Shown one piece after another: positions 1-40,900 of a stretch of 64,000 nt of DNA. The stretch comes from Takakia lepidozioides (taxonomy: Eukaryota > Plantae > Bryophyta). A model generated the notes under the pieces. That model did no database searches and was not told the origin of the DNA. It saw nothing but the letters and a program-made list of their open reading frames with translations. The stretch is from NCBI GenBank assembly GCA_030704615.1, contig CM060732.1, positions 64,170,001-64,234,000 on the forward strand. Reading direction: 5' to 3'. Each line of letters starts with the position of its first letter. Positions within the stretch are counted from its first letter, which is position 1. The position numbers and the translations under genes were made by a program.

Positions 1-109
1 GTCTCTGTCCTCCGGTGACAATGGGTCCAATGTCAGGCTCCCAATTGTCCTCCGTAACTGCAACCTTAAGTCTAGTGGGCTTAGAGGTAGAGGATGCGTC
101 CCGTGGTTG

Positions 110-1486: not shown

Positions 1487-1501
1487 CCGTTGATCAGCAA
1501 C

Positions 1502-2209: not shown

Positions 2210-2224
2210 CTTGGCAGCTGCAGC

Positions 2225-9308: not shown

Positions 9309-9859
9309 TTGCTGCTCACAAAAATAAACAAACCACAAGGGAGAGAGAGTGCAGAAAAAGTTAAAAAGATTGTACTCATAAGACGTTGTTTGTCGTAGTC
9401 TCACTAGAAGCATTCGTGTCTTTTCCGAATCGACTGGGTGTCCGCCAACCACTCTGGGAACCATTTGGCAGTAAGCGGGACTACTGGAGAGTCGAAACGG
9501 ACAATGTGGGCCCACGGGGGCATTTCAGATGGTGGGCAGAAGTGGGGTCAACGACTCCGGAGTCGTAGCAAAAATTCGGGCTATTTAATTAATTGCGTAA
9601 ATACATAAAATTTGAAAAAGCGGAAATTACAAGTGGTCTAATTACTGCACATGCGACTAGAAATTTTTCATTCATAATTTGATTAATGGAATAAAGATAT
9701 TTATTCATTAAAGTGAATATGTAGTCGACTCAACGACTCCATGAACCACTGCGCATTGATTGCACCCATGATTCGGGGCCACATTTGCTGACGTGTGTTT
9801 CACAAAAACAGGTTAAGAAAATGTGGCCTTGGACAATAGATATTTTAATATGTACTGCC

Positions 9860-19606: not shown

Positions 19607-19627
19607 AAGAAATGAAAGACATGGGAC

Positions 19628-22600
19628 ATGAGTGATGAAAGAGAAGCTAGACGACAAAGATATTCATCAAAAAGAGAAAGCTATCTGAAAGCTAATTATC
19701 CATATCTTTGGGAGAGAGGAATAGACATAGGGGAATCATCTAGACCTCTCACACCATCAAGATCAAAAAGTGCATCACCTATACCGGAAGAACTAGAGTT
19801 GGATGCCACTCCTTCTGTTTCTTTGCAAGAAAGATTAAGGGAATTGGTACAGGAAGAAGATCAATCACGAGGTGAAAGATCTGAGGTACATCCTTGGATA
19901 AAAGACTTGACAGAAATCTTTGATAAGAGTTGGCATGGAACACCAAAAGCAGGAACTCCAGTTTCTGAAGCAGAAGATGAAGAAGGAGATGAGGATGTGG
20001 CAGAGCCAACGGAGAGTTCAGACTCTCCAACACCATTACAGTTGAGTTACATGAGTGAAGAAGAAACCCAAGGGCAGAACTTGGAGGATGAAAACAGAGA
20101 GAAGAAATTAGAAGAGGAAGAATATGAAGAAGTAGACCCAACAGCTGAGGTTGAGACTACAACCAGGACATCCCAACCCGTTGGACCTGGATCAAGTGGA
20201 GCACTTGGATCACAGGCCAACGAAGGTGTCGGCTCAGGGGGATCAGGCGGGCTGCCTGGATCTGGCTCTGGGGGGACAGGGAGTGTGGGAAGTAGTGCAA
20301 CTGAAGCTGGGAATACTGTGAATATCGTGGGACCAGAAGCAAGGAGTGTTCAAGGGCCACCACTTGGTGGAAGATCCACCACAAAAACAACAGGTCCAGA
20401 AGGACCAGCACCAGCAAGGGTGCCAGCACCTGTCAGTGGGCAGAAGGTAGGGCCACAGATGGCGTTACAACCAACACGGGCAAAACCACCCTTTCCAATA
20501 TATTCAGGAAAAGGGGATCCCGATGTACACATTAGCCAATTTGAGCACATGTGTATAGTGAACAATGAGAATGGCGATGATGCCAAGATGAGACTGTTTC
20601 CTTGTTCACTTATCAAGAAAGCAAGTGAATGGTATGCAAGATTCCCTGATAATCATTTCCTAACCTGGAATGGCTTGAATACAGCATTTCGAAATAGGTT
20701 CAGGACAAGTAAAACTGAGGATGAAGTGTATGGAAGTTTACAACAGCTGAAGCAGAAGAAGCATGAAACTGTTGAAGAGTATATGGAGAAGATGGAATTG
20801 ATGATGAAAAAGCTGGCTGCAGTACCAGCACCCGGTTTACAGAAGACTTGGTTTGTGAGTGGACTAAGACCAGAGTTGCAGAAGAAAGTGGATATGTTAC
20901 CCCATAATACAGTGGAGGAGGCATTTGAAACTGCAAATAGAATTGAGCAATTGGGAATGCTCAGGAGAGAGAAAAAGGAAGATGAGGACTCTGAAGATGA
21001 GTCAGATGAAGAAGAAGAGCAAGAACTAAAAAGAAAGAGTAAGAGAAAGGAAAAGTTGAAGAGGGATAACTATGAGAAAAGATTGGAAGAAATCTTGAAG
21101 AAGTATGCCACAGAGGCTGCAACACATTGGAGGAAGGGTGTATGGTGTGCAAAGTGCCAGAATGAAGGCCATACCACTACAGAATGCCACATGAAGGAGA
21201 AACACTGTACTATCTGTAAAATGGATAACCATTCTACTGAGAATTGTTACTACAACAGAAGGACAGCTGCAAGAGAACCTAGGCAAGTGAGGGTGCATCA
21301 GGTGCAGCCCCAGCCAAGAAGAAGCAATGATCAGGACCACTATGGTAGGTCTGGTGGTTATAACAATGGCATGGAAGGGAGAGGTAATTCAAGAGGGAAT
21401 TACCAAGGAAATTCCAGAGGCAACTATCAGGGTAATCCAAGGGGGAATTACCAGCCCGGGAATCAGGATTATAGAAATAATCCAAGAACAGACCAAGGGC
21501 GAGGACCCAATGGTGAAGAGTTATGTTACTATTGTAATCAGCCAGGACATCGCAAGGCAGCCTGTTCATTCTGGATAAGACACCAGAATGAGATGAGAGC
21601 TCCTGTGAATGAGGGCCCAGTGGTGGCAGCTCACATGGTTAGGCCATGTGTTGTACCAGAAGTAAGTACAATGATAGTAACAAGAAGTAAAGCCAAACTA
21701 ATACCTCCAGTAGAAGAGGAAGAAGATGAGACTGGAAGTGGCAATGATATGCCTGAAGATGAAGAGACTTGGAAAGATGAGAAGGAACTGCACAAGGAAG
21801 TGGCAGATACTATAAGGGAAATGCAAAAGAGTACGGATATTCCTGTGGCAGATTCCTCTGATTCGGATGGAGAAAAAGAGGGGAGTGAGGAAGAAAGGAA
21901 AAAAGAAGATGCAGACATGCAAAGTAATGAAGAGACTTTGGCTGAAGTAATATGTCAGACCAAAGCAGAAATTACCATTGGACAGCTATTAGCTGTGGCA
22001 CCTTATTGTAGGCACAGGCTGTATCAGGCAATCAATCGAATTGCCCAAGAGACAGGAAACACAGACCTGAACAGCAAGGTGACCAGTTATAATGTGAAGC
22101 CGGAAGGGCGAGAACCAGTCATGGACTTTGATGATTCTATGCCAGTAATCCAATTGAGAATTGGAAGCACAGAACTAACTGATGTACTGATAGATGGTGG
22201 TTCTGGAGTAAATATCATGACAGACCAATTAAGGAAGAAGCTTGGTCTAAGTAACATGAAACCAGCCCCATTTACAGTAACAATGGCAGATCAAAGAAGT
22301 GTACAGCCATTGGGATTAATAAGAGGAGTTAAGATACAGATACAGAAAATGATCTTTATGATCACAGTAACTGTATTAAAAATGGATGAAGTCATGGAGG
22401 CTTACTCCTTATTATTGGGACGTCCGTGGCTGAAACAGGCCAGGGTATTCCATGACTGGAATTCTCAGTTACTAACTGTGCATAATGGGATGCACGAGAT
22501 ACAAATTACCACAAAGAAATCTAGTAGATTACCTGCTACAAGAAGACCTCGAGGAGTCAGAGAGTATGACTGGAGGGGAGGACTGGATGAGGAGCAGGAA

Positions 22601-22768
22601 GCTACCCTATTTGCTGCACACCCAGAATGGGAGCAGGTTGCAGAGATGCGGCTGGAAAGCCTAAGTTGTTTGAGAGGTATCTGCTGTGGTGTAGTGACAG
22701 CAACACCAACTGAAGAGAAACCAGCATTTACCCATCACATTTCTATGAAGAAAGAGAAGGAGAAATAG
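19628..22768 (+). CDS. Gag-protease polyprotein (1046 aa)
   Basis: FPIYSGKGDPDVHISQF capsid, LKQKKHETVEEY, three CCHC knuckles (CAKCQNEGHTTTEC, CTICKMDNHSTENC, CYYCNQPGHRKAAC), VLIDGGSGVN protease, YSLLLGRPWL. Confidence 0.95.
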   Translation: MSDEREARRQRYSSKRESYLKANYPYLWERGIDIGESSRPLTPSRSKSASPIPEELELDATPSVSLQERLRELVQEEDQSRGERSEVHPWIKDLTEIFDKSWHGTPKAGTPVSEAEDEEGDEDVAEPTESSDSPTPLQLSYMSEEETQGQNLEDENREKKLEEEEYEEVDPTAEVETTTRTSQPVGPGSSGALGSQANEGVGSGGSGGLPGSGSGGTGSVGSSATEAGNTVNIVGPEARSVQGPPLGGRSTTKTTGPEGPAPARVPAPVSGQKVGPQMALQPTRAKPPFPIYSGKGDPDVHISQFEHMCIVNNENGDDAKMRLFPCSLIKKASEWYARFPDNHFLTWNGLNTAFRNRFRTSKTEDEVYGSLQQLKQKKHETVEEYMEKMELMMKKLAAVPAPGLQKTWFVSGLRPELQKKVDMLPHNTVEEAFETANRIEQLGMLRREKKEDEDSEDESDEEEEQELKRKSKRKEKLKRDNYEKRLEEILKKYATEAATHWRKGVWCAKCQNEGHTTTECHMKEKHCTICKMDNHSTENCYYNRRTAAREPRQVRVHQVQPQPRRSNDQDHYGRSGGYNNGMEGRGNSRGNYQGNSRGNYQGNPRGNYQPGNQDYRNNPRTDQGRGPNGEELCYYCNQPGHRKAACSFWIRHQNEMRAPVNEGPVVAAHMVRPCVVPEVSTMIVTRSKAKLIPPVEEEEDETGSGNDMPEDEETWKDEKELHKEVADTIREMQKSTDIPVADSSDSDGEKEGSEEERKKEDADMQSNEETLAEVICQTKAEITIGQLLAVAPYCRHRLYQAINRIAQETGNTDLNSKVTSYNVKPEGREPVMDFDDSMPVIQLRIGSTELTDVLIDGGSGVNIMTDQLRKKLGLSNMKPAPFTVTMADQRSVQPLGLIRGVKIQIQKMIFMITVTVLKMDEVMEAYSLLLGRPWLKQARVFHDWNSQLLTVHNGMHEIQITTKKSSRLPATRRPRGVREYDWRGGLDEEQEATLFAAHPEWEQVAEMRLESLSCLRGICCGVVTATPTEEKPAFTHHISMKKEKEK

Positions 22769-22791
22769 AAATCCTAGAAGAACCAGCCACT

Positions 22792-25700
22792 GTGAGCTTA
22801 CAGGATGAAGTGGTGACCGGTTGGACAATCACAGCTGATGAGCAGGTGCGAGAAGTAAATGTGGGAACTCAGGAGGAACCGAGGATGGTGAAAGTAGGAG
22901 CTGATTTGGAGCCGGAATTCTTCGAAGAAGCAAAAAGCTTGTTCATCAAATACAGAGATGTATTTGCTTGGAGCTATGAGGATCTAAAATGGATACCACC
23001 TGAAGTCTGTCAGCATAAAATTGAACTGGAACCAGGGTCAGTACCAATCAAGCAGGCGAGGTATAGAATGAATCCCAACTACGCACAGAAGGTTGGAGAA
23101 GAGATAAAGAAGTTGGCTGAGGCTAAGTTTATATACCCAATAGAATATACAACTTGGTTGTCACCCATTGTTATAGTTCCCAAGAAGAATGGCAAACTAA
23201 GAGTATGTGTGAACTATAAGAAGCTGAATGCTTGTACGAAGAAAGATCCTTTCCCTTTGCCATTCACAGAAGCAGTATTAGACACTGTGGCAGGCCATGA
23301 GATGTACTCATTCATGGATGGCTTCAGTGGTTATAATCAAGTGCAAGTGGCAGAAGAAGACCAAGGGAAAACAGCTTTCATCACAGACTGGGGGGCTTAT
23401 GCATACAAAGTCATGCCCTTTGGACTTTGTAATGCACCAGCGACCTTTCAGAGAGTGATAAGTGAATCTTTTCATGAGTATCTGGATGATTTCATGCAGG
23501 TATTCTTGGATGATTTCAGTGTGTACAGCTCTAAGAATGAGCACTTGCATAAATTGGAGTTATGCCTGGCCAGATCCAGGATGAGAGGTCTGGGCTTGAA
23601 TCCAGAGAAGTGTACTTTCTGTGTGAACTCATGGGTGCTTCTGGGACACATAGTGTGTAAGAAGGGACTTCTTGTGGATCCCAGGAAGACAGAGTCCATT
23701 AAAGTCTCTCCACCACCAGTGAATGTTAAGAGTTTAAGGAGATTCCTTGGGCAAACCAGTTATTACAGAAGATTTGTCAAAAGGTATGCACAAATAGCAG
23801 CACCATTGAGCAAGCTTCTGAAGAAAGATGCAGTGTTTGCATGGACAGCTGAATGTCAACAGGCGTTTGAGGAACTTACACTGTCAGTAACAACTACACC
23901 TGTGCTGATTAACCCTCACTGGCATGTAGTATTTCATGTTCACTGCGATGCATCAGGAGAAGCGTTGGGAGCGGTGTTAGCCCAGAATGTTACAGGGAAT
24001 ATAGATTCACCTGTGTACTATGCTAGCCGGTTGATGAACAGTGCTGAGAGGAACTATAGCACAACGGAAAGAGAAGCATTGGCAATGATCTATGCAGTGA
24101 AGAAATTCAGGCATTACCTATTGGGAAGAAAGTTTATGTTTTATGTGGATCACCAGGCTCTGATATATCTGGTGAACAAACCTTTGATAAGTGGAAGGAT
24201 AGCGAGGTGGTTAATAATCTTGCATGAGTTTGAGTTCGAGGTTGTTTACAAGCCTGGCCGTTTGCATCTTGTGGCAGATCATTTGTCACGACTAACAACA
24301 GGAGAGGCCGCCACAGGAGTGGACGATCAGTTACCTGATGCGAGTTTATTTGTAATGGAGGTGCAAGGAAGTGCAGATGAATGGTTAGATTGGCAGTGGC
24401 CAATCAGATACTACCTTGCTCATGGTCAGTGCCCACCTAGTTATGGTAAGGAGCAGAGGAAGAGAATCGCTATCAAAGCTTTACCTTATACTATGGTAGG
24501 AAGCAGAATGTATAAGTTAGGACCTGATGGAGTACTAAAACGATGCTTGTACCACCATGAAGTAAATAAAGTCTTGGAGGAAGTTCATAAAGGAGTGGCT
24601 GGAGGTCATTTTGGAGAAGAGACTACCAGTAGAAAGATACTACTCGCAGGATACTGGTGGCCTACTTTGTTCAAAGATGTACATGAGTATTGTCAGAAGT
24701 GTGATGAATGTCAGAGGCTAGGACCTTTGCAGAGATCTGGAAGAATGGCCTTGCATCCTACAATGCCTACGGAACCATTTCAGAAATGGGGACTAGACTT
24801 TGTTGGACCAATTAGTCCACCATCCAAGAATACACAAAACAGGTACATAATTACAGCCACTGATTATACTACAAAGTGGGTGGAAGCTAAAGCTTTGAGG
24901 GACAACACAGCCAAGTCCACAGCAAGGTTCCTGTACGAGAACATACTTACACGATTTGGATGTCCCTTAGAATTTATCAGTGATCAAGGAAGTCACTTCA
25001 TGAATGAGACCATTGAGTTATTGACTAAAGAGTTTATGATTGTGCATAGAAAGAGTACAACATATTACCCACAGGGTAATGGACAGGCAGAGGCTACCAA
25101 CAAAATACTATGTACTATCTTGGCTAAGATAGTCAATGCAAACAGAACGGATTGGGATACAAAGCTGCTGACAGCTTTATGGTCATACAGGACTTCGTAT
25201 AAAGTCACCACAAAGTATACACCATTCCAATTAGTTTATGGTATGGAAGCCTTACTTCCAGTGGAATTCCTGTTACCTACCATGAGAACGGAGTGGGGAA
25301 AAAGAATGGAATTGCAAGACTCCATCAAGGTCAGGAAACATGAATTATACCATGTGGAAGAAATACGTGCTGATGCAGCTGATAATATGACCAGAATTCA
25401 GATGAAGAGAAAGGAACAGTTTGATGAAGGCAAGTTAAAGACTTTTAAGACGGGGGATTTGGTTCTATGGTTGCAAAAGAAAGGAAAGATTCAAGCTTCT
25501 AAGCTTAAATCACCATGGAAAGGACCTTATGTCATACAAAAGATGTATGATAACAACACAGCCATGTTACAAACCATTAACAAAGAAATGCTGGGAAGAG
25601 TCAATGCAAATAAGTTGAAGGGGTACAGTGGTATCCATGACAAACCCCTGCAGCATGATTTGCATGTTGAACCGCAAGAGCAGTCACGGGCTGCACCAGT

Positions 25701-26046
25701 GTTACGAACGGAGTATGGAACACTTGTCGCTAGGCCCAGTATATATGACCGGGGTGGGCAAAACAAACGTGACACAGCCTATCACAGCCCATCACGGCGT
25801 GACACAGCCTATCACAGCCCAGCACGGCGCAACACAGCCTATCACAGCCCATCACGGAGTGACACAGCCTATCACAACCTACCGCAGCGTGTCACAGCCT
25901 ATCACAGCTTACCACAATGCAACACAGCCTATCACAGCGTAACACAGTATGACACAGCCTGTCACAGCTCAACACAGCCTACTAAAGTTACACGATCCAT
26001 AGAATCAGTGACAAGTGGACACATAAAAACTTCAGAAAATGGCTGA
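22792..26046 (+). CDS. Pol: reverse transcriptase-RNase H-integrase (frame open from ~22714, -1 relative to gag)
   Basis: MDGFSGYNQ, MPFGLCNAPATFQR, VFLDD; RH HCDASG..TEREALA..VDHQAL; INT H..H..CQKCDEC, WGLDFVGP, SDQGSHF, QAEATNK, WKGPY. No chromodomain. Confidence 0.95.
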   Translation: MSLQDEVVTGWTITADEQVREVNVGTQEEPRMVKVGADLEPEFFEEAKSLFIKYRDVFAWSYEDLKWIPPEVCQHKIELEPGSVPIKQARYRMNPNYAQKVGEEIKKLAEAKFIYPIEYTTWLSPIVIVPKKNGKLRVCVNYKKLNACTKKDPFPLPFTEAVLDTVAGHEMYSFMDGFSGYNQVQVAEEDQGKTAFITDWGAYAYKVMPFGLCNAPATFQRVISESFHEYLDDFMQVFLDDFSVYSSKNEHLHKLELCLARSRMRGLGLNPEKCTFCVNSWVLLGHIVCKKGLLVDPRKTESIKVSPPPVNVKSLRRFLGQTSYYRRFVKRYAQIAAPLSKLLKKDAVFAWTAECQQAFEELTLSVTTTPVLINPHWHVVFHVHCDASGEALGAVLAQNVTGNIDSPVYYASRLMNSAERNYSTTEREALAMIYAVKKFRHYLLGRKFMFYVDHQALIYLVNKPLISGRIARWLIILHEFEFEVVYKPGRLHLVADHLSRLTTGEAATGVDDQLPDASLFVMEVQGSADEWLDWQWPIRYYLAHGQCPPSYGKEQRKRIAIKALPYTMVGSRMYKLGPDGVLKRCLYHHEVNKVLEEVHKGVAGGHFGEETTSRKILLAGYWWPTLFKDVHEYCQKCDECQRLGPLQRSGRMALHPTMPTEPFQKWGLDFVGPISPPSKNTQNRYIITATDYTTKWVEAKALRDNTAKSTARFLYENILTRFGCPLEFISDQGSHFMNETIELLTKEFMIVHRKSTTYYPQGNGQAEATNKILCTILAKIVNANRTDWDTKLLTALWSYRTSYKVTTKYTPFQLVYGMEALLPVEFLLPTMRTEWGKRMELQDSIKVRKHELYHVEEIRADAADNMTRIQMKRKEQFDEGKLKTFKTGDLVLWLQKKGKIQASKLKSPWKGPYVIQKMYDNNTAMLQTINKEMLGRVNANKLKGYSGIHDKPLQHDLHVEPQEQSRAAPVLRTEYGTLVARPSIYDRGGQNKRDTAYHSPSRRDTAYHSPARRNTAYHSPSRSDTAYHNLPQRVTAYHSLPQCNTAYHSVTQYDTACHSSTQPTKVTRSIESVTSGHIKTSENG
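25771..25980 (+). repeat. 30-bp tandem repeat (GACACAGCCTATCACAGCCCATCACGGCGT-like, ~7 units) in the pol 3' end
   Basis: Translates as repeated RRDTAYHSPS-like decapeptides. Confidence 0.9.
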
Positions 26047-26374
26047 AGGAAGAAGAAACGGAAATTAATTTAAAAATAGACACGTGGAGGTCAGGGTGCG
26101 ACACACAGCAGAGAATGAAGTGCAAGGACAGGTGTCAAAAAGAAAAAGGACAAGAACGGCCGTCAAAAGGGATGAAAGGCGGGCCCATTAATGAATACGG
26201 AAAAAGGGAAACGGAACGAACGGCAAGTACAGAAAAGCCGAATTCATGTCGCATGTGTGATCCTAGTGGACTATCCAACAGGGAAAGTCCACTAAAGAAG
26301 ATAAAAGTTAAAATCCAGTCACAGCGGATACAGCCAATAGAAAACCAGAAAATGATCAAGAAAATGGAGGGAAA

Positions 26375-29300
26375 TTGAGCGCAAGAGGCGGCGTCGTTCT
26401 GAGTAACGGGCGTCTCGACAGGACAGGCCATAAATGCTATAACTTGGAAACTATGGAGGAACTAACAGACTATACGCTCGCAATATTACTTACGCAGTGG
26501 CATAGACACGAAACGACAGAGCAGAGCTTTTCTCTTGAGCAATGCTTGCAAGCCCCGCAGGCTTACAAGAGATTACCCATAGCTTTCTGCGGCAACCATA
26601 CGTTTATGCTTTGTGCACTACAGGCATTCCTGCAGTTGTTACAGCCAAAGCAGTTCTGTGAGTCTAAGATGAAGAGAGTGAGAGGAATGGAGGAAATCAG
26701 GGTGAAGAGCACCACAATTCTGCAGAAACAAACGATGGCTACCCCACAGGCGATAAAGATACTGAAGGAGCTGAGATTGGAAGGATTGCAAAGCATGGAT
26801 TGGACACTACACCATAGACAGTACATGTTACAATTTTTGCAGAACTTTGAGCCAAAGACAGGAACAACAACGGTGAAGGGAGTTGAATTAATGATTACTC
26901 CCCTATACCTCCAGCAATTGTTTCGATTGCCAGCAGGTCATGTGTATGTGGAGGAACACAGGGAAAGACTGCAAATAGGGGATTTATTCCAAGAAGGGAG
27001 TTTCTTTAAAACTCAGGGTTATGCTTGTACCAAAGCTGTGTACCCAGGGTTAAAAGACATAGGCCAAGTATTGAACGTTCTGATTGCCCTGAAACAGAAC
27101 CAACAATATTTGAGCAGATCCTTCACAGAGGAAATCCTCAAAGGCTTGAAGGGACAAGAGGTACAATGGGCGGACATAATGTACAACGCACTGGTAGAGG
27201 AGATGAAAAGATTACAAGGTACTACCGCAAAATCTCCTATCATAGTGTCTGGCCCAATCATTGCTCAAATAATCCTTGATTCTGGCATACTTAATGCACA
27301 AGAAAGGAAGGAAATGGGAGTGTTTGAGCCAGAAACAACTGCAATGGAAGAGCAAGGCTCTTCACACAGTGAGGGTGGACTAGCAGCACAACCCGAGACT
27401 AAGAGGCAGAGAAGGGGAAAGACTGTAGTGGCAGATCCACTGGCTTCACGGATTCCGCATGATAATGTTTCCCAAGCTCATAACCAGGAAGGGGCACAGC
27501 AACAAAAAATGTTATTACTGGAAGCAGGACCTTCAGAGAGGGAGGAAGAAGTTACTTCTGCATCACAACCAACACAGCCACTTGAACGACTTGTCACAAG
27601 GTCACAAGTTATCCATGCAGCTCAACCCGAAATAATTGATTTGGAAAGTGAAGGGATAGATATTCCAACTACAGAACAGATAGTGGCAGAAATAGAGAAA
27701 GGGGACCTTCTCTATGAATATTCTGGTCTGGTCAAGGAGACAGAAATCCCAGAGGTGCAACAGTTGCCCAAGAGAAATCCTGAGGTACATATAATGCACA
27801 CACCTGTGTCGGAGGTACCACAGGCGGAAGGCCATGACACTGTAGCACCGGTCATAAATGAAGTAGTTCAGGAAGAAAATCCGGTGGGACAATGGTCTGA
27901 ATGGTTAGTGAGACATCATACTGTTGAAGATCAGGAGGAACAGCAGCAACCTCACCATGATGACCCTCAACAGGCAATGCTGATGAGTTCCATAGGCATG
28001 ACACTTAATTTGTTGGGGACTTATGTCAAAACCCATGTTCCAATTACCCAATTGACAGCCTTGAAAGAAGAACTCAGGAAGGAGTTTGAGGCTCGACTTG
28101 CCACTGAGTGTGCAAACAAGGTCGATGAAGAGGTCACTCTCAAGATGAAGCAGGACTTGGCCAATACAGAAATGGCTTTGCAATTGGCCAAGCAACAATT
28201 GATTGAGGCAGGCCTCGCGCAAGACCAGTTGCACGAAGCACATAAGCAACAGCTATACCAAATGCAGGTGCAGCATGAAAGCAAGTTGCAAGAACTGAAT
28301 GCACTACATACGGAGTTGCAGACAGTGCATAACAGGATGGCGATACAATGCGCTACATTTACAACTATGCTTGACCAATCAACAAAAGAAATAAACAGTC
28401 AAGCGGAAAAATGTACGAAGGCAGAAGAAGAGAATGTGGAGCACATGAAGCTCATTGTCGATATGAAGAATACAATCTGTCGCAATGAAGATACTTTCAA
28501 GCAATACAGGCAGATGGAAGCTGAGCAAGAGAAATACATCGTGGAGTTGCAACAAACCATCGTGGCCAATAGAAATGAAATCGCGGTCAGTAACAAGGCT
28601 TCGAAGGAAGCCAATAATCTACTTGCTGCCTATGCGCAATTGGTTGAGCCACAGGCGAAGCGCATGGAGGCTTTACAACAGCAGTTGGAATTGTACAAGC
28701 TAAGAGAAGAGCAAACTCTCAGGGGAACCACAAGCAGCTTGGTGGATAACAGCCTTATGCAGGTCTGGTTAGCACAAGGGCCAGTAGAGGGCAAAAGCCC
28801 ACGGAAGCTCACCCAAAGCGAGATGAATGAGCTCAGACTGCAGGTGCAGAACATTGCCACAACTACTATAGACAATGTCTATAGTAGGATAGCAGAGTTA
28901 CAAGAGGATGTAGACGGACTCCAGACTCAAGTGGAAGACCTCACTTCAAACATCGACCAAAGAGTCTATATCCCTCAGGAACAGCTAATGGCTTCTTATT
29001 TGCAAGCCAGAACTCTGGCTTTTCAGTCTTCACAGGAGGTGCAGGAGATGCCAATGGTACAGGAACCAGTACCACCACCACCACAACAGGTCAGTGTACC
29101 AGTAGCTGAACCTGTGGTTACTACAACCACACCACAGCCACCACAGCCGGAGGTATGGGGCAATGCAGCTTTTAACCCACCTAAAACTCCAGCTGCCAGG
29201 GAGTACAGTAGGGCTATGATTATGCCCTTCAACCAAATTCCCATCATGTTGGATTTGGCTTGGAAAGAATTTAGTCCTCCGCAGTCATTCGCACATTACT

Positions 29301-30217
29301 ACCAAATCATGCGTATTTGGCTGCCAGTGGCAACCAGGACTAAAGTTCTTCCAAACAATCGACATATTGAAGATCATCACTTTGCACAATACTGGCACGA
29401 GGCAGGTACCATGTTGAGGGAATTGGTTGCTTTCCAGGTTGTACATGGACTCATTTATACCAAGACCAAGGAGATAGCAAGTATTGTCATGGGGTGCGGG
29501 CTATACTACGCTGCTTGTTTTCTGATACGTTACCACATTGAGCAACAAAAGATGCAAGCACGCTTTCAAAGTTACTCCAGTGGAGATCATTGGGTATTAC
29601 CTTCGGTGCCACCTCATATGTACCTATATGACCCAAAAGTTATGATACAGAAGGATTCTCAAATTCGTTCATGGTTTCAAGCAGCCTGCAACAATTTGTC
29701 AACACAGAAATTCGGACTTGATGACATTTTCTATAAGGGACATATCGCATGGAAATACTTGCACGCTGCACCAGTAATTGGTACCCCACTCATTTGGACA
29801 GACAAGGAGCTCAGTGTCTACACCAATTTTGCTGTTCAACGGTTACACCAGGTCGTAAAATGCAAACTTCCAGACATGGTAGGACAGCATTGTATGCCCA
29901 AGATGATTCCACAAAAAGTTCGAAAATTAAAACACCTGAGAGGCGATGAGGATTCTGATACAACTGTTTCTTCACAGAATTCTTTTGACATGGAAGAAGA
30001 CTATGCAATTCAGATGGAAGAGAAGAAGCAAAGGGGATCTCCTATGCCGGAACGATTACCTCGATATCAGCCTCCAGAAGGCCTCACTTATCCAGGTAGT
30101 GATCAACCATCTCCGTCAACCAGAGACAGACCTCGGGCTCGTACACACAGCCCGCCACGAAACTCTCAACGTCAACAAGGTGCTCACTCACAAAGGGTTG
30201 CTACTCAGAAACAGTAA
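26375..30217 (+). CDS. Large 3' accessory ('env-like' position) ORF, ~1250 aa, with a plant-transposon-protein/PMD-like N-terminal region and a long coiled coil
   Basis: Uninterrupted frame between INT and the PPT; LQFLQNF..TVKGVELMITPLYLQQLFRLPAG..VQWADIMY resembles Athila/Tat accessory proteins; Q/E/L heptad region ~28050-28950. True start uncertain (first ATG ~26453). Confidence 0.8.
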   Translation: MSARGGVVLSNGRLDRTGHKCYNLETMEELTDYTLAILLTQWHRHETTEQSFSLEQCLQAPQAYKRLPIAFCGNHTFMLCALQAFLQLLQPKQFCESKMKRVRGMEEIRVKSTTILQKQTMATPQAIKILKELRLEGLQSMDWTLHHRQYMLQFLQNFEPKTGTTTVKGVELMITPLYLQQLFRLPAGHVYVEEHRERLQIGDLFQEGSFFKTQGYACTKAVYPGLKDIGQVLNVLIALKQNQQYLSRSFTEEILKGLKGQEVQWADIMYNALVEEMKRLQGTTAKSPIIVSGPIIAQIILDSGILNAQERKEMGVFEPETTAMEEQGSSHSEGGLAAQPETKRQRRGKTVVADPLASRIPHDNVSQAHNQEGAQQQKMLLLEAGPSEREEEVTSASQPTQPLERLVTRSQVIHAAQPEIIDLESEGIDIPTTEQIVAEIEKGDLLYEYSGLVKETEIPEVQQLPKRNPEVHIMHTPVSEVPQAEGHDTVAPVINEVVQEENPVGQWSEWLVRHHTVEDQEEQQQPHHDDPQQAMLMSSIGMTLNLLGTYVKTHVPITQLTALKEELRKEFEARLATECANKVDEEVTLKMKQDLANTEMALQLAKQQLIEAGLAQDQLHEAHKQQLYQMQVQHESKLQELNALHTELQTVHNRMAIQCATFTTMLDQSTKEINSQAEKCTKAEEENVEHMKLIVDMKNTICRNEDTFKQYRQMEAEQEKYIVELQQTIVANRNEIAVSNKASKEANNLLAAYAQLVEPQAKRMEALQQQLELYKLREEQTLRGTTSSLVDNSLMQVWLAQGPVEGKSPRKLTQSEMNELRLQVQNIATTTIDNVYSRIAELQEDVDGLQTQVEDLTSNIDQRVYIPQEQLMASYLQARTLAFQSSQEVQEMPMVQEPVPPPPQQVSVPVAEPVVTTTTPQPPQPEVWGNAAFNPPKTPAAREYSRAMIMPFNQIPIMLDLAWKEFSPPQSFAHYYQIMRIWLPVATRTKVLPNNRHIEDHHFAQYWHEAGTMLRELVAFQVVHGLIYTKTKEIASIVMGCGLYYAACFLIRYHIEQQKMQARFQSYSSGDHWVLPSVPPHMYLYDPKVMIQKDSQIRSWFQAACNNLSTQKFGLDDIFYKGHIAWKYLHAAPVIGTPLIWTDKELSVYTNFAVQRLHQVVKCKLPDMVGQHCMPKMIPQKVRKLKHLRGDEDSDTTVSSQNSFDMEEDYAIQMEEKKQRGSPMPERLPRYQPPEGLTYPGSDQPSPSTRDRPRARTHSPPRNSQRQQGAHSQRVATQKQ

Positions 30218-30238
30218 ACCGTGAGGACACGGCTTTTT

Positions 30239-30252
30239 GAGGGAGGAAGGGG
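30239..30252 (+). promoter_or_regulatory. Polypurine tract
   Basis: GAGGGAGGAAGGGG just before the 3' LTR, preceded by a CCGTG-AGGA-CACGG hairpin (30219-30232). Confidence 0.88.
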
Positions 30253-30256
30253 TAAA

Positions 30257-31281
30257 TGTTAGAGGACTGTAGGGGACTTAGACACTTATACGGGATCTGT
30301 AGGGTACCCTTAATTTTTGCACAGACTGAGACAAACAGGAACCTTAGGGGTGACAGCAGCGCACTGTAGAGGGGGGTTACATAGCCCACACAGCCGACAC
30401 AGCAGTCACAGCCCACACAGCCAACACAGCCCGTCACAGTCGTCACAGCCCACACAGCCCACACAGCCCGTCACAGTCGTCACAGCCCACACAGCCCACA
30501 CAGCCGTCACAGCCCGTCACAGTCGTCACAGCCCACACAGCCCACACAGCCCGTCACAGCAGACACAGCCCACACAGCCAGTCACAGCCCGGCACAGCCA
30601 CACAGCCAGTCACAGCCCGACACAGCCAAACACAGCCAGTCACCGCTTGACACAGCTGTCACGATAATAGGGAACGAAGAGTAGGACAGGGAACGACTGT
30701 GGGGAACAACACCTGTGAAGGGAACATGTTAATTCACATACGACGGTTAGAGAGGGAAACGGTTAGAACCGCGGATAGGAGGATAAAGGGAGAAACGGGG
30801 AATGAAGAAGGGATTATGATTCGGGGGAGGAGGATTTCGGAGAGAGACGGGAGCGGAAGTCGGTGAGCACGATGAAGGAGGAAAGAGGATTAGTAGATGC
30901 TTGTTATATGCAAAGCTGTAGGGATATTGTAGAGGAGAATAGAGACACAATGGCTTCGGCCTGATACCTGATAAATCATAATCTGATACTTATACGATAC
31001 AATCACAATGTGTAGAGAGATCTGAGTGAAGCTGTGGATTGAATGGAGGAGTGAAGGAAACCGATAAATTGATGAAGCAAACTGATACTTAATTATCAAT
31101 GGTAAGGTAGCTAAGATGAATGCGGAAAAGGAAACAAATAGGAAACACCCCCATGATACACTAGCTGTAGGTCATGACTGATTGTTCTGCGCGGGCTGAG
31201 TACTTAGAGATTTCCAACTCTTCTATCTTGGAGTTTCCGCCTCGGATAGCGAAGGGATGGGTGAGTAAAAGCCGCGCGACA
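30257..31281 (+). repeat. 3' LTR (1025 bp)
   Basis: Direct repeat of 17921-19018, followed by the TSD GTTCC. Confidence 0.97.
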
Positions 31282-31449: not shown

Positions 31450-33888
31450 GTAGTACAAGACTAACTGTTTGCTCGGGGCTAAGCACCAAAGGGTACCATG
31501 CATGCTTGCATTGTGGTGATAATCTCAATGCACATAGCTCCCGCCATCTTCACAAGATGATGTATCCCAACTACCGCAAATTTCTTCTTATGAGCCATCG
31601 ATGGAGAAGAAGAGAGAAACACTTGTTTGATGGCAAAGAGGAAGTACGTCCCCCCCCTATGACACCGTCCGGGCAGTTTTGGGAGGACCGATGGAAGAAG
31701 GCCCATGCGGGCACGGACGGTGAAGTGGACGTGCCCGACATGAAACGACTTTCAATCTTCTACGAGTTGCCATATTGGGCGGTACATATTCCACAAAAAC
31801 ACCGTCAATATCCCTATGCATGCATGTGATATTGTACATTTGGTATGCGTTGCATTGTCACTTTCACGTAAAAAAAATTGTGTAAGTATTTGTGGGTGGG
31901 GATATATGTAGGACCTGAAGATTCGCCATCTTCTAAATCCCATGCATATTGAGAAGAATGTCTGCTCGTCTTTTTTTCGGGTTTTTCATGGCACGCCGGC
32001 AAAGAAGGGAGTGGCTGCAAAAGGAGATTCTCTCGGTGTTAGAAAGGAGCTCGAGGAGCAGGGTCGCATGCGCCATCTATGGGCCGAACAAAATGGTGTG
32101 GACCCAAAGGGTGTTGTACGGTGGAAGTATAGGCGCACATCTTGGCAATGGACAAAGGAGGAATACAAGAAAGTGTTAGCCACCATAAGTGTTGTCCGAA
32201 CACCAACTGGTTATGGGTCATCCCTCCGTACGAAGTTCAGCGAAGAAGACGGGGTCCATGGTTTGAAGTCTTATGACTACCATAATCTATTGCAAGACAT
32301 CTTGCCCATTGCAGTATGTGGGACATTGACTCCCGAGGTTCGTGAGACAATCTATAGATTGGGAGGCTTGTTCCGGTGGATTTGCTCCAAAGAGTTGGAG
32401 GAAGCGGATTTTTCACGTATGAAGAAAGAGGCGGCGGAGGTAATGTGTATGCTGGAGATGCAGGTCTTCATCCCTCCTTCTTTGATATCCAAGTGCATTT
32501 GGTAGTGCACTTAGTAGAAGAGGCTTTGATTGCCGGCTCCGTTCATTCTCGGTGGATGTACTTCCTTGAGCGTTATATGAAGATTTTGAAAGGATTTGTA
32601 AGCCAAATGGCGCACCCGGAGGGTAGCATGGCGGAGGGGTATACATTTGCAAGAAGCTATGTTCTATTGCACGGAGTACATGACAAGGGTGGATGAGGAA
32701 GCCCCTCGGCTGTGGAAGGAAGATGAGGATGCACAAACCAAGGACATCGTTTAGCCCAAAAAATCGAAGAGGGTAAAATTGCCGACCTTGGTGATTGAGC
32801 AAGCGCATGACTTTATACCGAAGAACATCCCATCCATACATGAGTGGGAGGCAAGATACAATAATCTTGTTCAACAACGAGAGGAGGAGACGCTGGCATG
32901 GAGGCGGAACCATCCAAGGCTGGTTACGAGACGCCCACGACGAGGAGCGGGCCGCCGGAATGTTCATTCACAAAATTTGCCCATGGAATTGCAGCCTCTA
33001 AGTTCATTCCAGCAGTGGCTTCGGACTTCAGTTTATGACGCCGTTGCTTAAGGAGAGGTGGTTTCAGATTTGGTGCAAGACATTGCAAGGGGCCCCTCTC
33101 AATTCACGACCTCATACACGGCGGTTTGGGTTCACAATCGTCATTTCCGCATTCGTGCTCTTGACATGAAGCGCAAAACAACCTTTGATTCTGGCTTGTG
33201 TGCCACATATTGGCAAGACTCCGTGTGGGGCAAGGGAGATACACGACTTGCTATGAGCAAACTTGAGTACATTGGAGAGCTTGAGAGCATACTCCAACTT
33301 CAGTATACAAGGTACCGGCCTCTTCTCTTCAAGGGAAGGTGGTTCCAGCCACATCTTGTGGGGCCCTCCGCAACACTAGTGCAAGATGATTGTGGTTTCA
33401 TGCGCGTCAATGCAGATAGGCTCAACCCTACTCATGGTCTCTCCGATGCGCCTTTTTCACGCCCTTTAGACATGTAGCAAGTTTTCTTCTCCGATGACAA
33501 AACAAGAGGGGGGAATTGGAAGGTGGTTGTGCATGCTCAGCCAAGAGGAAGACGTATCTATCATGGTCTCGGATCTCCATGGGGTGAGGCAATTGCGGTG
33601 GACAGAGAGACTGGTGATAATGATGCTAATGATGGAGGTTGGGTAGAGGGGGTAGAAGAGGATGATGACGCCGCAGACAATGCATCCCGGACCCTATATG
33701 ATGAAGCTCCAGAAGATACGGATGTTGGAGAAGGAGACGAAGACACGGCCATTGACAACGAGGTGGAGGATGATTTGGAGGTGCCTTTTGAGGGCCGGGC
33801 CATTTATGACGATGACTCCGATGACCAAGAAGACTTGCAGCTTGATGAGGATGAAGAAGCTCCGGATGATAATGTTCAAGTTGATTAG
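31450..33888 (+). pseudogene. CACTA transposase 3' exons (DUF4218/DUF4216-like regions) with acidic tail
   Basis: ORFs 31446-31829, 31942-32505, 32376-32696, 33058-33477 and 33523-33888, with stops and frameshifts. Confidence 0.8.
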
Positions 33889-34239: not shown

Positions 34240-34795
34240 GCTGTCGCTGCCTGCGACCCCCACGCGTCGCAACCTGCGACGCGTTTTTTTGGATTTATGA
34301 GGCCGGGGGTCGCAAACGGCGACGGCAAGCCATTGCAAACTGTGACCTGCTTTTTTGTTTTGAAAGAATAGGGCAGCCGGACAGTGTGCGACGCCGGGCC
34401 GTCGCAGGGGCCTTTTGCTCTTCATGCCACTATGCAACGGCCTGGCGTCGCAAGAAAAGGCTGCGATGAAAGAAAGAGAAAGAAAGGGAAAGAAAGGGTT
34501 TTTTTTTTGGCGTGCGACGACCGGCAAAGAAAGGGCTGCCTTCTGCCCTTCGTTGGGGGGTGATGCTTGGGCGTCGCACGGAAGGGCTGCTTTTTGCCCT
34601 TCATCCGCCCATGCGACGGCCAGGCGTCGCCACCTGGCCCCGGCGCCAGGTGGCGACCCGCGGGGTTTGGTTGCGACGGTCGGGCGTCGCAAACAGGCTC
34701 CGCGGGGTTGGCGTCGCACGCTCGTTGCCGCGCGGGGCGTGGGGCGCAGCTGGCGTCGCAAAACCCCCCCCCCCCCCCCCCCATTTGCTATAGTG
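34240..34795. repeat. CACTA 3' subterminal repeats (GCGTCGCA / TGCGACG in both orientations) and TIR
   Basis: Many GTCGCA/TGCGAC copies clustered before the ...CTATAGTG end. Confidence 0.85.
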
Positions 34796-37700
34796 ATCTT
34801 CGAACAACTCCATAGTCCGTGACTGGATCAATGATATCTCCATGTCACTATACTGGTAGGGCCTTTAAAAGATTGACGTGTCACTTGCCAAATCAATACG
34901 AATCTTTTTGCCCTTCAAACTCCCCAAATCCTTCAAACCGAAGGCAAAGCGATTTCTCTAAGCTTTTAGAAATCGATGGATCCTCCGTCTCTCTCCTCCG
35001 GTGACTGTAGGTCCAAGATCTGGTTCCCAATTGTCCTCAATGACTGTAACCTTGGGTACACCGGGCTTGGAGGTAGGAGACAAATCCTTTGGTTGCTAGA
35101 TAGCAATCTCTTGGGCCTTGTCCGCCCAATCTGACTGTGGCGTAGCCTCCACTTGCTCCGCCATAGCCACCTTGAGAACATCCTCTGAGCAAGAAACATT
35201 CTCAACCTCTTAAAAAACCTTGGCTACCTTGGCCTCCAACTGATCCTCAGTCCATGGCTCTCCCCACTCCTCATACTGCTGCTTGAGAGATCCAATGACT
35301 CTCTTTTTGCGCATCTCATCCCACATCTGCCATTGGTGTTTGCAACCCACGATCCTGTGCTCGCCCCCACTCACTGCTGCAATCGTCCCGGTTGGCAGGG
35401 AGGATGCACCATCCAATGGAAGTGCCGAAGTAGCCACCACTCCTTGCAATCTCCGTTGCTCAGCCATGCACAAGGCAATGATCCATGTCAAGCAATTTAG
35501 ATCCATTGCCTGACCCAACACTTGACGACGTGATACCTCCGACAGACTGTCTCCCTCCCTCCTTGGAATTGGCCGGTTTTATCAGTGTTAATTTCCTGTT
35601 TTTCCATCTATACCGGATGGATCCATTGTCTCAAAAAGCATGAGACGAGGGAAAGCTCATGAGCGTAGGCAAAGCCAAACGTGGCTGCCCCACTCGATTG
35701 ACCACCGCCAGAGGTGGACGGTCATCATGTCGCACCATCCCTTTAGTCCAAAATGCCCTCAACCGTGAGATTGGGTGGTAGTTGAATGGAATTGTATGCT
35801 CTCTTGAGCAGCTCTGGTGGTGCAAGATTGGTCCACCACAATCGAGGTCGATGCGCGCGTGATCCCACCGCTGCTGCATCCAATAACACCGCCGATCCAA
35901 TCCAAGACCGCACTTGATGCACACTGGCCATAACCCTGGCCCGAGAATCCCCCATAAGAGGAACATTCTCCAAGATATAGCCTAGAGGTTGCACTTGCCC
36001 CGTCTCCAAGTCCCGCAACACTCGCAACATCTCCCAAAACAAATGCGATCGTGCATCATGCAAGTCATTCCCATGACCTGCGGGAGAGTGTCCTTGGCAA
36101 GACCATCCAGCTATCACCAAGTCAATGGCACCATGCCGGTCCAAATCATCCGCCCCCAACAAGGTAATGTCTGCTGGCAAGGCCTTTTGATACCCTTGAA
36201 TTGCTGAGAGAGGCAACAACTCAGGATACTGGTGTGTGAGCAAGACGATGTGGCGCATAGAAATATGCCGAGCTATCTCATCCTTCTCCACGTACAAGTA
36301 CTTGTGTACTTTAATCCCTGCTTGCAACACTCCTGCAAGCCCAGTGCTCATGCCTCCAAACAGGTCTAGCAAACAAATCCCTGAGTCAGGTGGTTGCCAG
36401 ATAATGGGCACTGTGTCCAAAGGAGCTAACTGAGGAGGTCTAGGTGGTGTCACTGAACTCCCCTCACCCACCGATGGAAAGGCCTCCTGTCATGCTTGTT
36501 GCACACACTCACCTACTACTCGTTGCAAATTCCCAACCGTACCCCACAGTGGAATATGCACAGGCACATGAGGAAGCAAATCAGCCTTGTATGCCAATTG
36601 TTTGTCCTCATCAGGTGATGGCCTATCATCTGCATGGCTATTGCCCTCCAAGAGCTCACCACCCCAAGCCACTACCCCTGAGAATGCAGCCAATGTGGGC
36701 ATCATGTTCCTATGATCCACCGCTACATTCCCAATAAACCGCACTGGGAGCAGTGCACATCGGCCATCTCCTGACTGCCATTCCGGTCTATAGGATGTCG
36801 TTTCTTCCAAAAAGTCCAGAGTGAATCCTATGGGGTATAACACCGCCCCACCAACAAGCACATCATAAGACATCGCGTCCGTAACAATGACTTTAGCTCT
36901 CATGACTGAGCCTTCCGTAGGATGATCCGGCTGCAATCGAATGAAGAGCTCATGACATGTAATCCCTCGTGCCTTCTCTGAACCGCCCAAAGATGTTTGA
37001 ATTTGGAAATGACAAGGCTCCAAATTCGCCTTTGTAAGGCCCAAGCCTGCAATTGTTGCTCTTCCCAACATCAATGGCTGTGTTCCCGAGTCCAACAAGA
37101 CCCGCAGTGGCCTATACCTCCTCCCGGCTGGGCCACCCAACTGAAACACACCATCCTGATTGTCCACCAGGATTACCCCATGAGTCACCATACTACGCTC
37201 AATGGCTAGCCTAGCTTGCAACTCCTGCAACCTTGCAGCTGCCGTTTGCCATGGCGCAGCTGTGGCTATCTTCACCCTTGAATCCAGAGCATCCATGCAC
37301 TGCACCTTATCCGCTATCCCCGCAGATAGTGCCGATGCATCACCACTGTCACAGAGTGCAACTGCCAATCTAAACACTGCAGCTAGCCGCATCCCCGACA
37401 TTGCAATTGTCGTGGCAGAAAACAATGGAGCTTGGCAAATTGCCGTAGCCGCCCCCAACAATGTACTGGCTGCACCTTGCTTTGCAGCACCACCCACTGG
37501 CATTTCCCGAGCTACACCAACTCTCCCCAATGGCAATCGTGGCTCTACCTCTGACATACTTAGGCGAGCGGGTGCCATCGATGACGTAATTGGCACTGTC
37601 TTAGCCAATGTGAAAGACTGTGGAAGCTTTGTCTGTCAACTTGCTTCCCCCTTTTGTGGATCAAAATCCACATCCGCTTCTCTTGGCTCAGAAGCACGAG

Positions 37701-37900
37701 TTGTTGCTCGAGTGATAGCAGCTGTAGCGTCCACATGTAATGGTCCTGCAAGTGCGGCTCCACACATGAAGCCCATACCAATCTGGTCTTCCCTAGGCAT
37801 CGGAGGTTGTGCAGGTGGGGCTTGAACCTCAGGCCTTGGAGTTGGCGCCACATTAGTAGTGGCCATGGCAGCAAAACGTTGCTCTAGCTGGGCAAACCTA
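34796..37900 (-). mobile_element. Second, more decayed copy (B) of the DNMT-carrying Ty3/Gypsy element: late Gag-PR-DNMT-RT N-terminus, cut by the CACTA insertion
   Basis: Colinear with copy A (RVLLDSGTQ; LLDLFGGMSTG; IAGWSCQGH; YILENV; RAHRPRLWWTN; LGQAMD). 34800-34985 reads ...RFAFGLKDLGSLKGKKIRIDLASDTSIF*RPYQYSDMEISLIQSRTMELFE, i.e. the start of a Gypsy RT. Confidence 0.9.
35440..36471 (-). pseudogene. C5-DNA methyltransferase domain of copy B (PC changed to SC, frameshifted, short foreign patch at ~35550-35625)
   Basis: ORFs 35743-36471, 35631-35966 and 35210-35521. Confidence 0.9.
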
Positions 37901-40900
37901 TTCCTAGTACTCCAGTCCAGTTCCCAGTACCCTAGCCCAGTTTCCAGTATCTGGTAATCCAGTCCAGTTTCCAGCATTCCAGTATTCAAGTCGTGTTCCA
38001 ATATCTTGTACCCTTGTTCATTGTTATAAAGATCGCATTGATTCATATTTACTCATCGTGCATACGGCCACGCCGACCTTGACTTCTTGTCTAGTCTTGT
38101 ACCTCTAGTTTGATCTCTTGTTTGTGTTCAGTCATGCTCTCGTCCTTGACAACATATACAATTTTTTGAAAGCTCTGCTCGCAGACATCAGTGTGCTCAT
38201 TTTGGGTATGCACAGGCGCATACAGGTTTTCATGGCTAGATCCTTACACTCAAACTTGCGTCTTGTTTTGCAGGCTATGCAGGCGTATAAGGGTTTTGCA
38301 GTCATGGTATTGAATATCTCAATCAGCGCGAGTGTGTTCTATCATGGTATGCGTAGGCGCATAAGCATATTGAACAATAAAGCTACTCTCTGCAGACCTG
38401 TAAGCCGTGGGCATTTTACCATATGCGCAGGCACATATGCATTATGGACTCATGAACCGGATTCTTGCAAACAGTAGAGGCACAGATAGTGAACATACCT
38501 TATGTTTTCTGCCTCTTCCGCGATTTCTTCATGTAGCTCCCGAACCTTCATCATCCATAAAGCCAGCTTGCGCATTCATCCTTTCTATCACCGTAACGGT
38601 TCGCTGTCGAAGCGTTGTGTAATACAATTTTTTTTGTCTTCTTCTAGCTGTGTATGTCTCCAGGCTCTTCAACTATCACGAAACTGTTTGCAAGGACCTT
38701 AGATTTGTAGGGTAGACGTCGTTGCCGGTGAAGTCCTCATGTGCGGTGTACTATGGCATACAGGTGCAGCGAGTGTGAATGTCGTGATGGGCTATGACGT
38801 GAAGATGACATTGAAGTGCCCATGTAGAACCTTAGTTTTGAATTTTGGGGTGGATGAATGTATTTAGTGTAGATGAATGCATGATGATAGGTCTGGATGG
38901 TGTTGTGAATATTGGATGTACCATGATTGATATAATTAGATAGATAGTTCTGGTTTTTCAACTTATGAGTTATAGCTTGGTGGTTGGTACACTACACATT
39001 ACTCATGAAGTTTTGAGTTTGAGCCTAGGCCGAGATGAGCGGGGGAAAGGTGTACATAATGCTTCATATATATAATTTCATCCCATCGCTGTTCGATTTG
39101 GATGTGTGGTAAGGTATATGAGATATCTCTATCTGGATTGTACTCACTGTTGATAAAGATTTTTAGGTTTATTATCCTCGGCGAGTGCATATATGTGTTG
39201 TCTAATGGTTGCTGTTCTTTCGTATGTTGCTAATGGAAATGTGCAAATGTAGATTGAATTGGTTCAAATGTAGTAGTCAGCTACCAGCTGGATATTAAAA
39301 TTTTCATGATGGTTATCAAAGAGGTTCTTAAATTCCAATTCCCAAGTGTTATATTCATAAAAATAAAATTGAATTTGAAAAGCATTATGGTCGTCACATC
39401 ATCCTTAACCACGTCATTGTTGTCATTTTAAGTTGCCCAGACAAAATAAAACAGAATTTTTAGGATGCCAGCTAGTGCTCAAAAAAAATTTCTTGGCAGG
39501 ACAATAGGCCACGTCGATGGTTTTGGCTAAACCTCAATACCGTTCTAGCCAAGGCAATGGCAAGAGATATCGGCAAAACCTTAAAACTATTTTAGGCAAA
39601 AAAAAAAAAAAAACACGTTAATAGGTATTATTTATTTAAACCTAAATATCATTCAATTACCCAAATAGCCATATTGTTAATAGATAAAATTGAATATTAT
39701 TTTTTAATATAAATTCAAAACAATTTGGTACCTCGGTTAGAGGGTGTTGTAATGTTCAGTTGTTACGTTTCTTCATTGCCACCCAAGTGATTGTCACCTA
39801 TATCTTTATATTTTCATGGCCTTACAAGATTATTTCTTCATTCTTTTTTGTGATTTGTTCATATAATTTAATTAATCATTAGAATAGCTTAGAATTGCGT
39901 GAATAATTTTGGGTTCAAATCTTGTCACTATTACCTTTATATTTGTTTTCATGGCTTTACAAGGTTTTTTTTTTTTTTTTTTTTTCTTTCTTTCTTTCTG
40001 GAATTTGATTAGAATAGCTCAAAATTACATTAAAATAAATAAATAAATAAAATTTGTACACTTGGTGGTTCATAATCGAGATTTTTTTTTTCTATTATAC
40101 AGAATACATATCTATCACATTGATTACAAATAGTTTACAGTAAAGCATGGTTTTTAGAATGAGATAATAAGGTGAGCATCCACCATTGATAATATCAGCT
40201 TTGGTATTCACAATAACTTTATTTTTGTACAGGGGTTCGAACCCTCATAGGTATCCACTATAGCACACAAAATTATGGCCCAAAGGCCTTTAATATTAAC
40301 CAAAAATGATTAAAAATAATGGAGTTTTGGAAATGTAATATAATAAATAATTCGATTGAATAGATTTTGAACTTATTGGAATGATGAAATCTGAGTTGAA
40401 AACTTGATATAAGATAGTGGTATATTATTATAAACAAATATTTTAATTTTTTCTTTAAGTTATAGATAAATATAACATATTTATTCTGATAATAATAATA
40501 AAAACTTTGCTTACATAAATATCATATTTAACATATTTATAGTTTTTGAGATGTAATATGACAAATAACTTGATTGATTGGATTTGAATTGGAGAGCATG
40601 ATACAATATGATAATATGTTGTTTTATTATTATATAATATATAAAGATTAATATTTATATAATATTTATTATAATTACGAACATATAAATTAATAAATTT
40701 AAATAAACAAGTAAATAATTTTTATATATGTTTGAAATATGAAGATGTAATAGTAAAATATATGTTGATATATTTGAAATAGGTAAATAAATATGTAGAA
40801 AAAAATAAAATAAAACATGATTGATTCAAATTGGATATTTATTGATCGATGATGGATAGAATGATAATTGATTTATATAGATGATAGGTGATTAATGTCG

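Follow-up and report, generated by a model that had tools for sequence, protein, structure and literature searches.

We analyzed a 64,000-nucleotide stretch of Takakia lepidozioides DNA (hereafter the window), which contains an intact PLS-DYW PPR gene together with CACTA and Gypsy elements. This content points to a land plant as host, and the relatives described below suggest a non-seed plant. The PPR gene lies at 50623–53604 on the minus strand, and a cluster of decayed PPR fragments occupies 9800–15400. One Gypsy element (17921–31281, plus strand) is young and intact and sits in a CACTA element. Its LTRs are long and nearly identical, and its insertion left a target duplication of 5 bases. 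Gag overlaps pol in another reading frame, and ahead of the 3′ LTR lies an additional frame of 1301 codons (26312–30217), for which there was no Pfam match. Two long open frames at 60762–63940 (minus strand) had no Pfam match either; we take them to resemble a Mutator-like transposase region. Two further minus-strand copies, A and B, belong to a Gypsy family that carries a DNA methyltransferase (DNMT).

Copy B (34796–37890) is a dead, doubly truncated fragment of a DNMT3-bearing Gypsy retrotransposon that runs from a gag-protease linker to the start of the reverse transcriptase (RT). Gag itself is absent. The linker (37191–37890) aligns to positions 2170–2845 of A and is followed by an aspartic protease (approximately 36740–37190), recognized in the translation by LLDSG with the Asp codon at 37092; Asp_protease Pfam matches are present in relatives. 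Next come a DNMT3-type C5 methyltransferase domain (35460–36378), an in-frame TAG that ends the Gag-protease-DNMT frame (35096–35098) and, immediately 3′ of it, CAA CCA (35090–35095). The RT leader and RT N-terminus (34797–35095) continue in frame with the stop and are cut at 34796. As the first-pass annotation had proposed, the cut is made by a CACTA end. The right end of that element (34265–34795, plus strand) adjoins 34796 with sub-terminal GCGACG repeats and a terminal repeat at 34789–34795, and a DUF4218 match lies on the CACTA side at 32490–32654. At 34798 there are loose ends, where contigs of other copies run on into RT. Neither the second CACTA end nor the remainder of B's RT is present within the 64-kb window. 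B has lost gag on one side, and its RT is cut by the CACTA end on the other.

The 5′ boundary of B is formed by a high-copy terminal piece (37901–38151, strand not assigned) that ends in TGACA at 38151, where a depth peak and heterogeneous loose ends occur. This piece could be the 5′ repeat that belongs to B, brought next to it by an internal deletion, or else the LTR of another element. It matches neither the DNA upstream of A nor any of the 80 relative loci described below, and it has a 12-base word in common with repeat B of one relative (L059). The copy has decayed: it carries six private stops, its frame shifts near 35745, and a stretch near 35625–35546 is deleted. The catalytic motifs had been read from B as kept except for a change of PC to SC, and this is the case: B reads GWSCQG, with the Ser codon at 36102–36100 and the catalytic Cys retained. 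Because the residue before that Cys is Pro in 59, Ser in 7 and Leu in 7 of the 75 loci that cover it, the SC of B looks like C-to-T decay.

Copy A (1–4100) encodes gag, protease and DNMT and leaves the window just past the DNMT-RT junction. It has four private stops, has lost one Arg of motif VIII and, like B, is dead. Upstream of its gag, between gag and a possible 5′ end (TGTCAA at 5788), is an open frame of 273 codons (4830–5651, minus strand) with no match in Pfam or in the 80 loci. The two copies were described at first pass as colinear yet diverged, and the alignments agree: B 35319–37890 and A 276–2845 are 68% identical over 2639 columns, and the leader piece (B 34987–35116, A 1–130) is 75% identical. 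Their flanks share nothing and similarity ends with the element, which argues against a segmental duplication as the source of the pair; relatives also occur elsewhere in bryophytes. The description of A and B as differently aged is not supported, since what separates them is the divergence of two subfamilies rather than the dates of their insertion.

PF00145 matches in both copies, and the DNMT is under purifying selection, as had been suggested from its conservation relative to the linkers. Amino-acid identity between A and B is 74% in the DNMT and 45–58% in the linkers. With Nei-Gojobori counts on the A-B codon alignment (stop and gap codons excluded), dN/dS of the DNMT is 0.12 (274 codons, bootstrap 0.07–0.17), well short of 1, and raw pN/pS is 0.25. 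The value of 0.12 is rough because dS is about 1.6, near saturation. Among the other segments, the protease has a dN/dS of 0.17 and the two linkers upstream have 0.23 and 0.33 (the latter for the gag-protease linker); the tail that follows the DNMT reaches 0.60, and the RT leader has 0.32.

The motifs of the domain follow the order I to X without rearrangement. The best PDB matches of a family profile were DNMT3A, DNMT3B and DNMT3C at 1e-18 to 1e-22 (DNMT3A at 1e-22), with DRM and HhaI at 1e-8 to 1e-10. An alignment-based structure model of the family domain reached a pLDDT of 86.7, against 33 for a single-sequence fold. From sequence comparison, we classify the domain as DNMT3-type. In a quick DNMT tree, A and B fall within a well-supported set of 22 rows together with liverwort and Sphagnum proteins. 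This tree (58 rows, midpoint-drawn, without host DNMT3) gives neither the donor nor the order of events.

According to the first-pass annotation, B continues from the DNMT into a Gypsy RT. The peptides on which this was based, WEPDLGPTVTGGERR and FAFGLKDLG..IRIDL..RPYQYSDME..IQSRTMEL, are present, but the frame between DNMT and RT is interrupted by the TAG at 35098–35096. A has TAG CAA CCA at the same aligned position (104–112, stop at 112–110), and this in-frame stop, 23 codons before a conserved Trp at the RT start, is the only one common to the two copies. A metagenome scan found 148 stretches with relatives, the best 80 of which were used as loci. At the subfamily 1 junction, 54 of 82 sequences covered the site and the other 28 were incomplete or too distant for alignment. 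The 51 non-redundant sequences comprised 37 TAG, 13 TAA, one GAG and no CAG. In subfamily 2, which is more distant, 16 loci were inspected, eight show the junction and seven of these have a stop. Only one locus per subfamily has a sense codon at the junction (L044, GAG; L061, GAA). In a distant relative (L139, with a DNMT about 50% identical), one TAG CAA TCA lies between an open frame of 1162 codons and one of 1047, and no other stop interrupts these roughly 2,200 codons. As the conserved stop sits there, a continuous DNMT-RT junction is wrong.

Many C-to-T stops occur in the copies (four in A, six in B), and the junction stop could be one of them, a methylated CAG or CAA mutated in dead copies, or a mark of a non-autonomous lineage. 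As a control, 16 ordinary Gln columns have stops in 13% of copies (maximum 23%), whereas the junction, with stops in 53 of 54, is the sole column among 499 to exceed 30%, and no CAG or CAA occurs at it in the 54 covering loci. Moreover, the same stop is the sole one in the intact L139, and the RT, RNase H and integrase behind it are 59–72% identical between distant lineages. The Gln-column control and L139 largely refute an origin by decay, which we consider highly improbable.

The sequence that follows the stop is also retained. Four lineages differ in the distance from stop to Trp (17, 23, 24 or 28 codons) and have RT leader peptides that are otherwise unalike, yet all of them remain in frame and keep CAA-YY. 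Tobacco mosaic virus uses UAG-CAR-YYA as its signal for readthrough, and plants decode the stop there as Tyr (PMC2754532, PMC3159437). A, B, L139 and subfamily 2 score 6/6 against CAR-YYA, and subfamily 1 scores 5/6. In subfamily 1, CAA CCC, one base off CAR-YYA, follows the stop in 47 of 51 sequences. The eight subfamily 2 junctions read TAA CAA TCA (three), TAA CAA TTA (one), a stop followed by AAA TCA (three) and GAA CAA TCA (one), so that 3/8 loci of this subfamily have AAA TCA. Across the window, TAR is followed by CARYYA in 5 of 2712 cases. A long-range stem is predicted 3′ of the stop in B (34970–35087, minus strand); the GGERR codons form its 3′ arm and about 35087–35066 its 5′ arm. 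The duplex has −24.8 kcal/mol, and compared with synonymous shuffles its z is −1.85 (p 0.053). The stem is strong in L139, with z values of −3.9 and −4.2, and weak elsewhere. Among the 19 sequences in this comparison, L139 was significant, three more had p<0.05, B was at 0.053 and the other 14 were not significant. No Rfam match was obtained in L139 or L059. In combination, the fixed frame and context suggest that the stop is probably read through.

Two other routes from the DNMT to the RT were considered. In the first, splicing would reach RT as in Ogre elements, for which an intron between GAG-PROT and RT has been described (PMC6317226), with the TAG serving as a 3′ splice acceptor or being removed in an intron. 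The DNA before the TAG is U-rich in subfamilies 1 and 2, where pyrimidines make up 70–75% of the last 20 bases, but only 45% are pyrimidines in A and B, and in L139 another AG lies two bases upstream. Five named gene models fuse DNMT to RT, and the three that we examined bypass the junction at three different joints; because the joints differ, as expected of prediction artefacts, we read them as such. Splicing leaves unexplained why the frame is fixed across the stop and why CAA-YY is kept, and we regard it as unlikely. In the second, RT and integrase would be translated separately, by reinitiation or from an internal transcript. An ATG occurs two codons past the stop in 50 of 51 subfamily 1 loci (GTG in the remaining one), and subfamily 2 also has a Met a few codons past the stop. 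Against this, the leader lacks a Met in B and in the 36 codons available from A, and in the second L139 frame no Met occurs before residue 117, which lies inside RT. In LTR elements, Pol is usually packaged as a fusion to Gag, which also argues against separate translation. This route is very unlikely, and we retain readthrough as the explanation for the junction.

Full relatives encode gag, protease and DNMT, then RT, RNase H, integrase and a PHD finger. The Ty3/Gypsy order GAG-PR-RT-RH-INT with a DDE integrase is found in L139 and the subfamily 1 loci, and the window covers gag to the RT start. There is no chromodomain after the integrase, where Pfam gives the PHD finger instead, so the family is not a chromovirus. 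In place of two complete direct LTRs, relatives have split repeats arranged as repeat A (about 340 bases), coding region, repeat B (115 bases), two bases, A and B. Among 10 loci this arrangement is complete in three (L059, L048 and L054, with L059 and L054 being one insertion site), partial in three and absent in four. The CA-NN-TG junction between repeats B and A recurs in L139 and L141. TG and CA ends with 4-bp target duplications occur in L059/L054, L048, L071 and L014; no 4-bp duplication was found for L040. Two loci have the A-coding-B form with intact 4-base duplications (L071 1811–10544 and L014 1916–10555), and such copies likely arose by recombination between the two B repeats. Purine tracts lie ahead of repeat B (L059 10430–10556, L139 6935–7060), and no tRNA primer site is evident after the 5′ repeat A of L059.

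Other element classes with unusual termini do not fit. Troyka elements have CG…CG ends and 3-bp duplications and are reported, in the available text, only from animals (PMC12440569), whereas the relatives have TG/CA ends and 4-bp duplications. DIRS and Ngaro elements use a tyrosine recombinase, and the relatives have rve and H2C2 integrase domains and target duplications. Separately, ACA-GC-TGTCA occurs at 18389 and 30652, in both LTRs of the young Gypsy element of the window; it follows the CA-NN-TG pattern and may be chance.

The first-pass annotation took A and B to represent an abundant family, and relatives were found across bryophytes. In a protein search with the DNMT of A, 105 matches were about as long as the query and 49 were longer. 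Named matches came from Sphagnum, Calypogeia, Marchantia and Riccia, most at 55–74% identity, and no protein labelled Klebsormidium was among the matches of the DNMT protein searches. The subfamily 1 DNMT is 88–90% identical to a named Sphagnum protein. Full-length frames occur in Marchantia (gene models Mp8g17980 and Mp4g09160). In a DNA run from the host species, summed contig depth was 56,000–345,000 over B versus 59 in the flank. As summed depth is not a copy number, this excess of about 1000-fold is only a sign of high copy number. A read comparison over 35066–35130 gave zero differences, although contigs there carry 1–7 other letters, and we do not take it as evidence on the stop in the host's copies.

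The family profile matched 619 clusters at 1e-30 among 50%-identity representatives, and the position of the DNMT differs among them. In 137 new top profile proteins, RT or RNase H precedes the DNMT in 68 and RT follows it in three. Among 96 long proteins, the DNMT comes after RT in 37, a protease-DNMT protein ends before RT in 34 (a few of these incomplete), DNMT and RT share one chain in eight, and the remaining 17 are partial or other. The protease-DNMT proteins include Marchantia and Calypogeia models that end at about the same column, as protein models. Two intact relatives (L140 3061–9519 and L141 1–9045) have the same DNMT between RNase H and integrase. L139, L140 and L141 come from prokaryotic genome bins and are probably eukaryotic contaminants. 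In viral contigs we found 58 loci, all weak partial matches at 24–53% identity.

DNMT3-bearing Gypsy elements were described in 2018 from Klebsormidium nitens as KnitGypsy-Dnmt3 (de Mendoza et al., PMC5890265). Compared by published description, the two families share the Gypsy domain set and an unrearranged Dnmt3-type domain, and both are under purifying selection (Ka/Ks below 0.2 there, dN/dS 0.12 here). The DIRS-like split repeats A-coding-B-A-B are also described for KnitGypsy-Dnmt3, as we find them in L059, L048 and L054, so the kind of element is already known. They differ in the place of the DNMT. In KnitGypsy-Dnmt3, according to the main text and the authors' reply, it shares the Pol frame of RT and RNase H, whereas in the present family it is the last domain of the Gag-protease frame, set apart from RT by a conserved stop. 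In addition, the present family is high-copy and lives in land plants. In their available text, two later papers refer to such elements only as streptophyte (PMC12344493; bioRxiv 10.64898/2026.05.21.726589). SymbioDIRS-Dnmt3, SymbioLINE-Dnmt and EpiLTRs are likewise retrotransposons with a cytosine methyltransferase, but as described they are of other retrotransposon classes or have another DNMT lineage (PMC5890265; bioRxiv 10.64898/2026.05.21.726589). The EpiLTR DNMTs are reported as sister to DNMT4 and at the end of pol (bioRxiv 10.64898/2026.05.21.726589).

The stop also has precedents. In common with type I readthrough of tobacco mosaic virus, benyviruses and pomoviruses, the family has a UAG with CAA CCA, CAA UCA or CAA UUA behind it and a possible stem from about 8–11 bases past the stop. 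This candidate site differs in lying between the DNMT and RT of a retrotransposon and in the CAA CCC of subfamily 1. Single in-frame stops are reported at gag/pol in MuLV, Tca2 and Tj1/Tosmo and at pol/env in SIRE1 (PMC2194720; bioRxiv 2022.12.06.519325), where they set the ratio of structural to enzymatic product. Unlike in the MuLV type, the stop here comes after the protease and an added enzyme and not immediately behind gag, which would place protease and methylase on the abundant side. The Ogre arrangement, with a spliced spacer of about 274 bases (PMC6317226), also differs, as the frames here abut across one codon. By title and abstract, with subscription journals, Repbase and bioRxiv supplements outside the search, we found no report of DNMT-bearing Gypsy elements in land plants; at the same level, none was found of readthrough in DNMT-bearing Gypsy elements. 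Neither “methyltransferase” nor “PHD” appears in a survey of plant LTR elements (PMC6317226). What appears to be new is thus a land-plant DNMT3-Gypsy family with a conserved stop between DNMT and RT as a candidate recoding site.

Starting from the observed domain order, stop, frame, context and purifying selection, and from the split repeats and 4-bp duplications of relatives, we favor the following reading, with a probability of roughly 0.75. B is a dead member of a Gypsy family with a high copy number, in which the Gag-protease-DNMT frame ends at a conserved UAG that is read through for Pol, and the packaged methylase methylates the cDNA. Most ribosomes would stop at the UAG, making Gag-protease-DNMT the main product, and a few, aided by CAR-YYA and the 3′ stem, would continue into RT, RNase H, integrase and the PHD finger. 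Packaging would then give each particle capsid-level amounts of methylase, far more than of reverse transcriptase; the methylase may be freed by the element's own protease and could methylate new cDNA in or near the particle.

The last step depends on the DNMT being kept as a catalyst. It may instead be retained for DNA or RNA binding in the particle, or for methylation of host DNA in trans. CpG observed/expected is 0.48 in A and 0.51 in B, against 0.34 in a DNMT-less Gypsy element and 0.50 in the PPR gene. As A and B are not below the latter two, there is no element-specific CpG depletion and thus no footprint of self-methylation. The Klebsormidium DNMT was inactive in yeast, in an assay that its authors call inconclusive (PMC5890265), and capsid-level abundance seems above the need of one cDNA. 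On the other hand, despite decay, 65 of 75 covered loci keep the catalytic Cys and 78 of 82 keep the Glu of motif VI, and L139 is intact at each of the seven residues checked. A non-catalytic or off-cDNA role is therefore somewhat unlikely, and the conservation of these residues points to catalytic methylation of the cDNA as the probable function.

For bryophyte genomes, one consequence is that many “DNA methyltransferase genes” in annotations are parts of transposons, and that gene predictors appear to invent introns to bypass the conserved stop. Why a transposon would carry an enzyme that silences transposons has been a question since 2018, with the known cases in algae that are hard to work with; given the full-length frames in Marchantia, it can now be tested in a model plant. 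By putting the methylase at capsid level and not at RT level, the conserved stop would narrow its possible roles. Taking all parts jointly, and at a little under even odds, we tentatively suggest that non-flowering land plants, including Marchantia, host an old and abundant lineage in which a DNMT3 moved to the capsid side of a programmed UAG-CAR-YYA readthrough site, within a wider clade with split repeats and a PHD integrase whose DNMT occupies at least three polyprotein positions. Many active de novo methylases per particle would pre-methylate the cDNA and, next to the host DNMT3, may be a source of de novo methylation that has gone uncounted.
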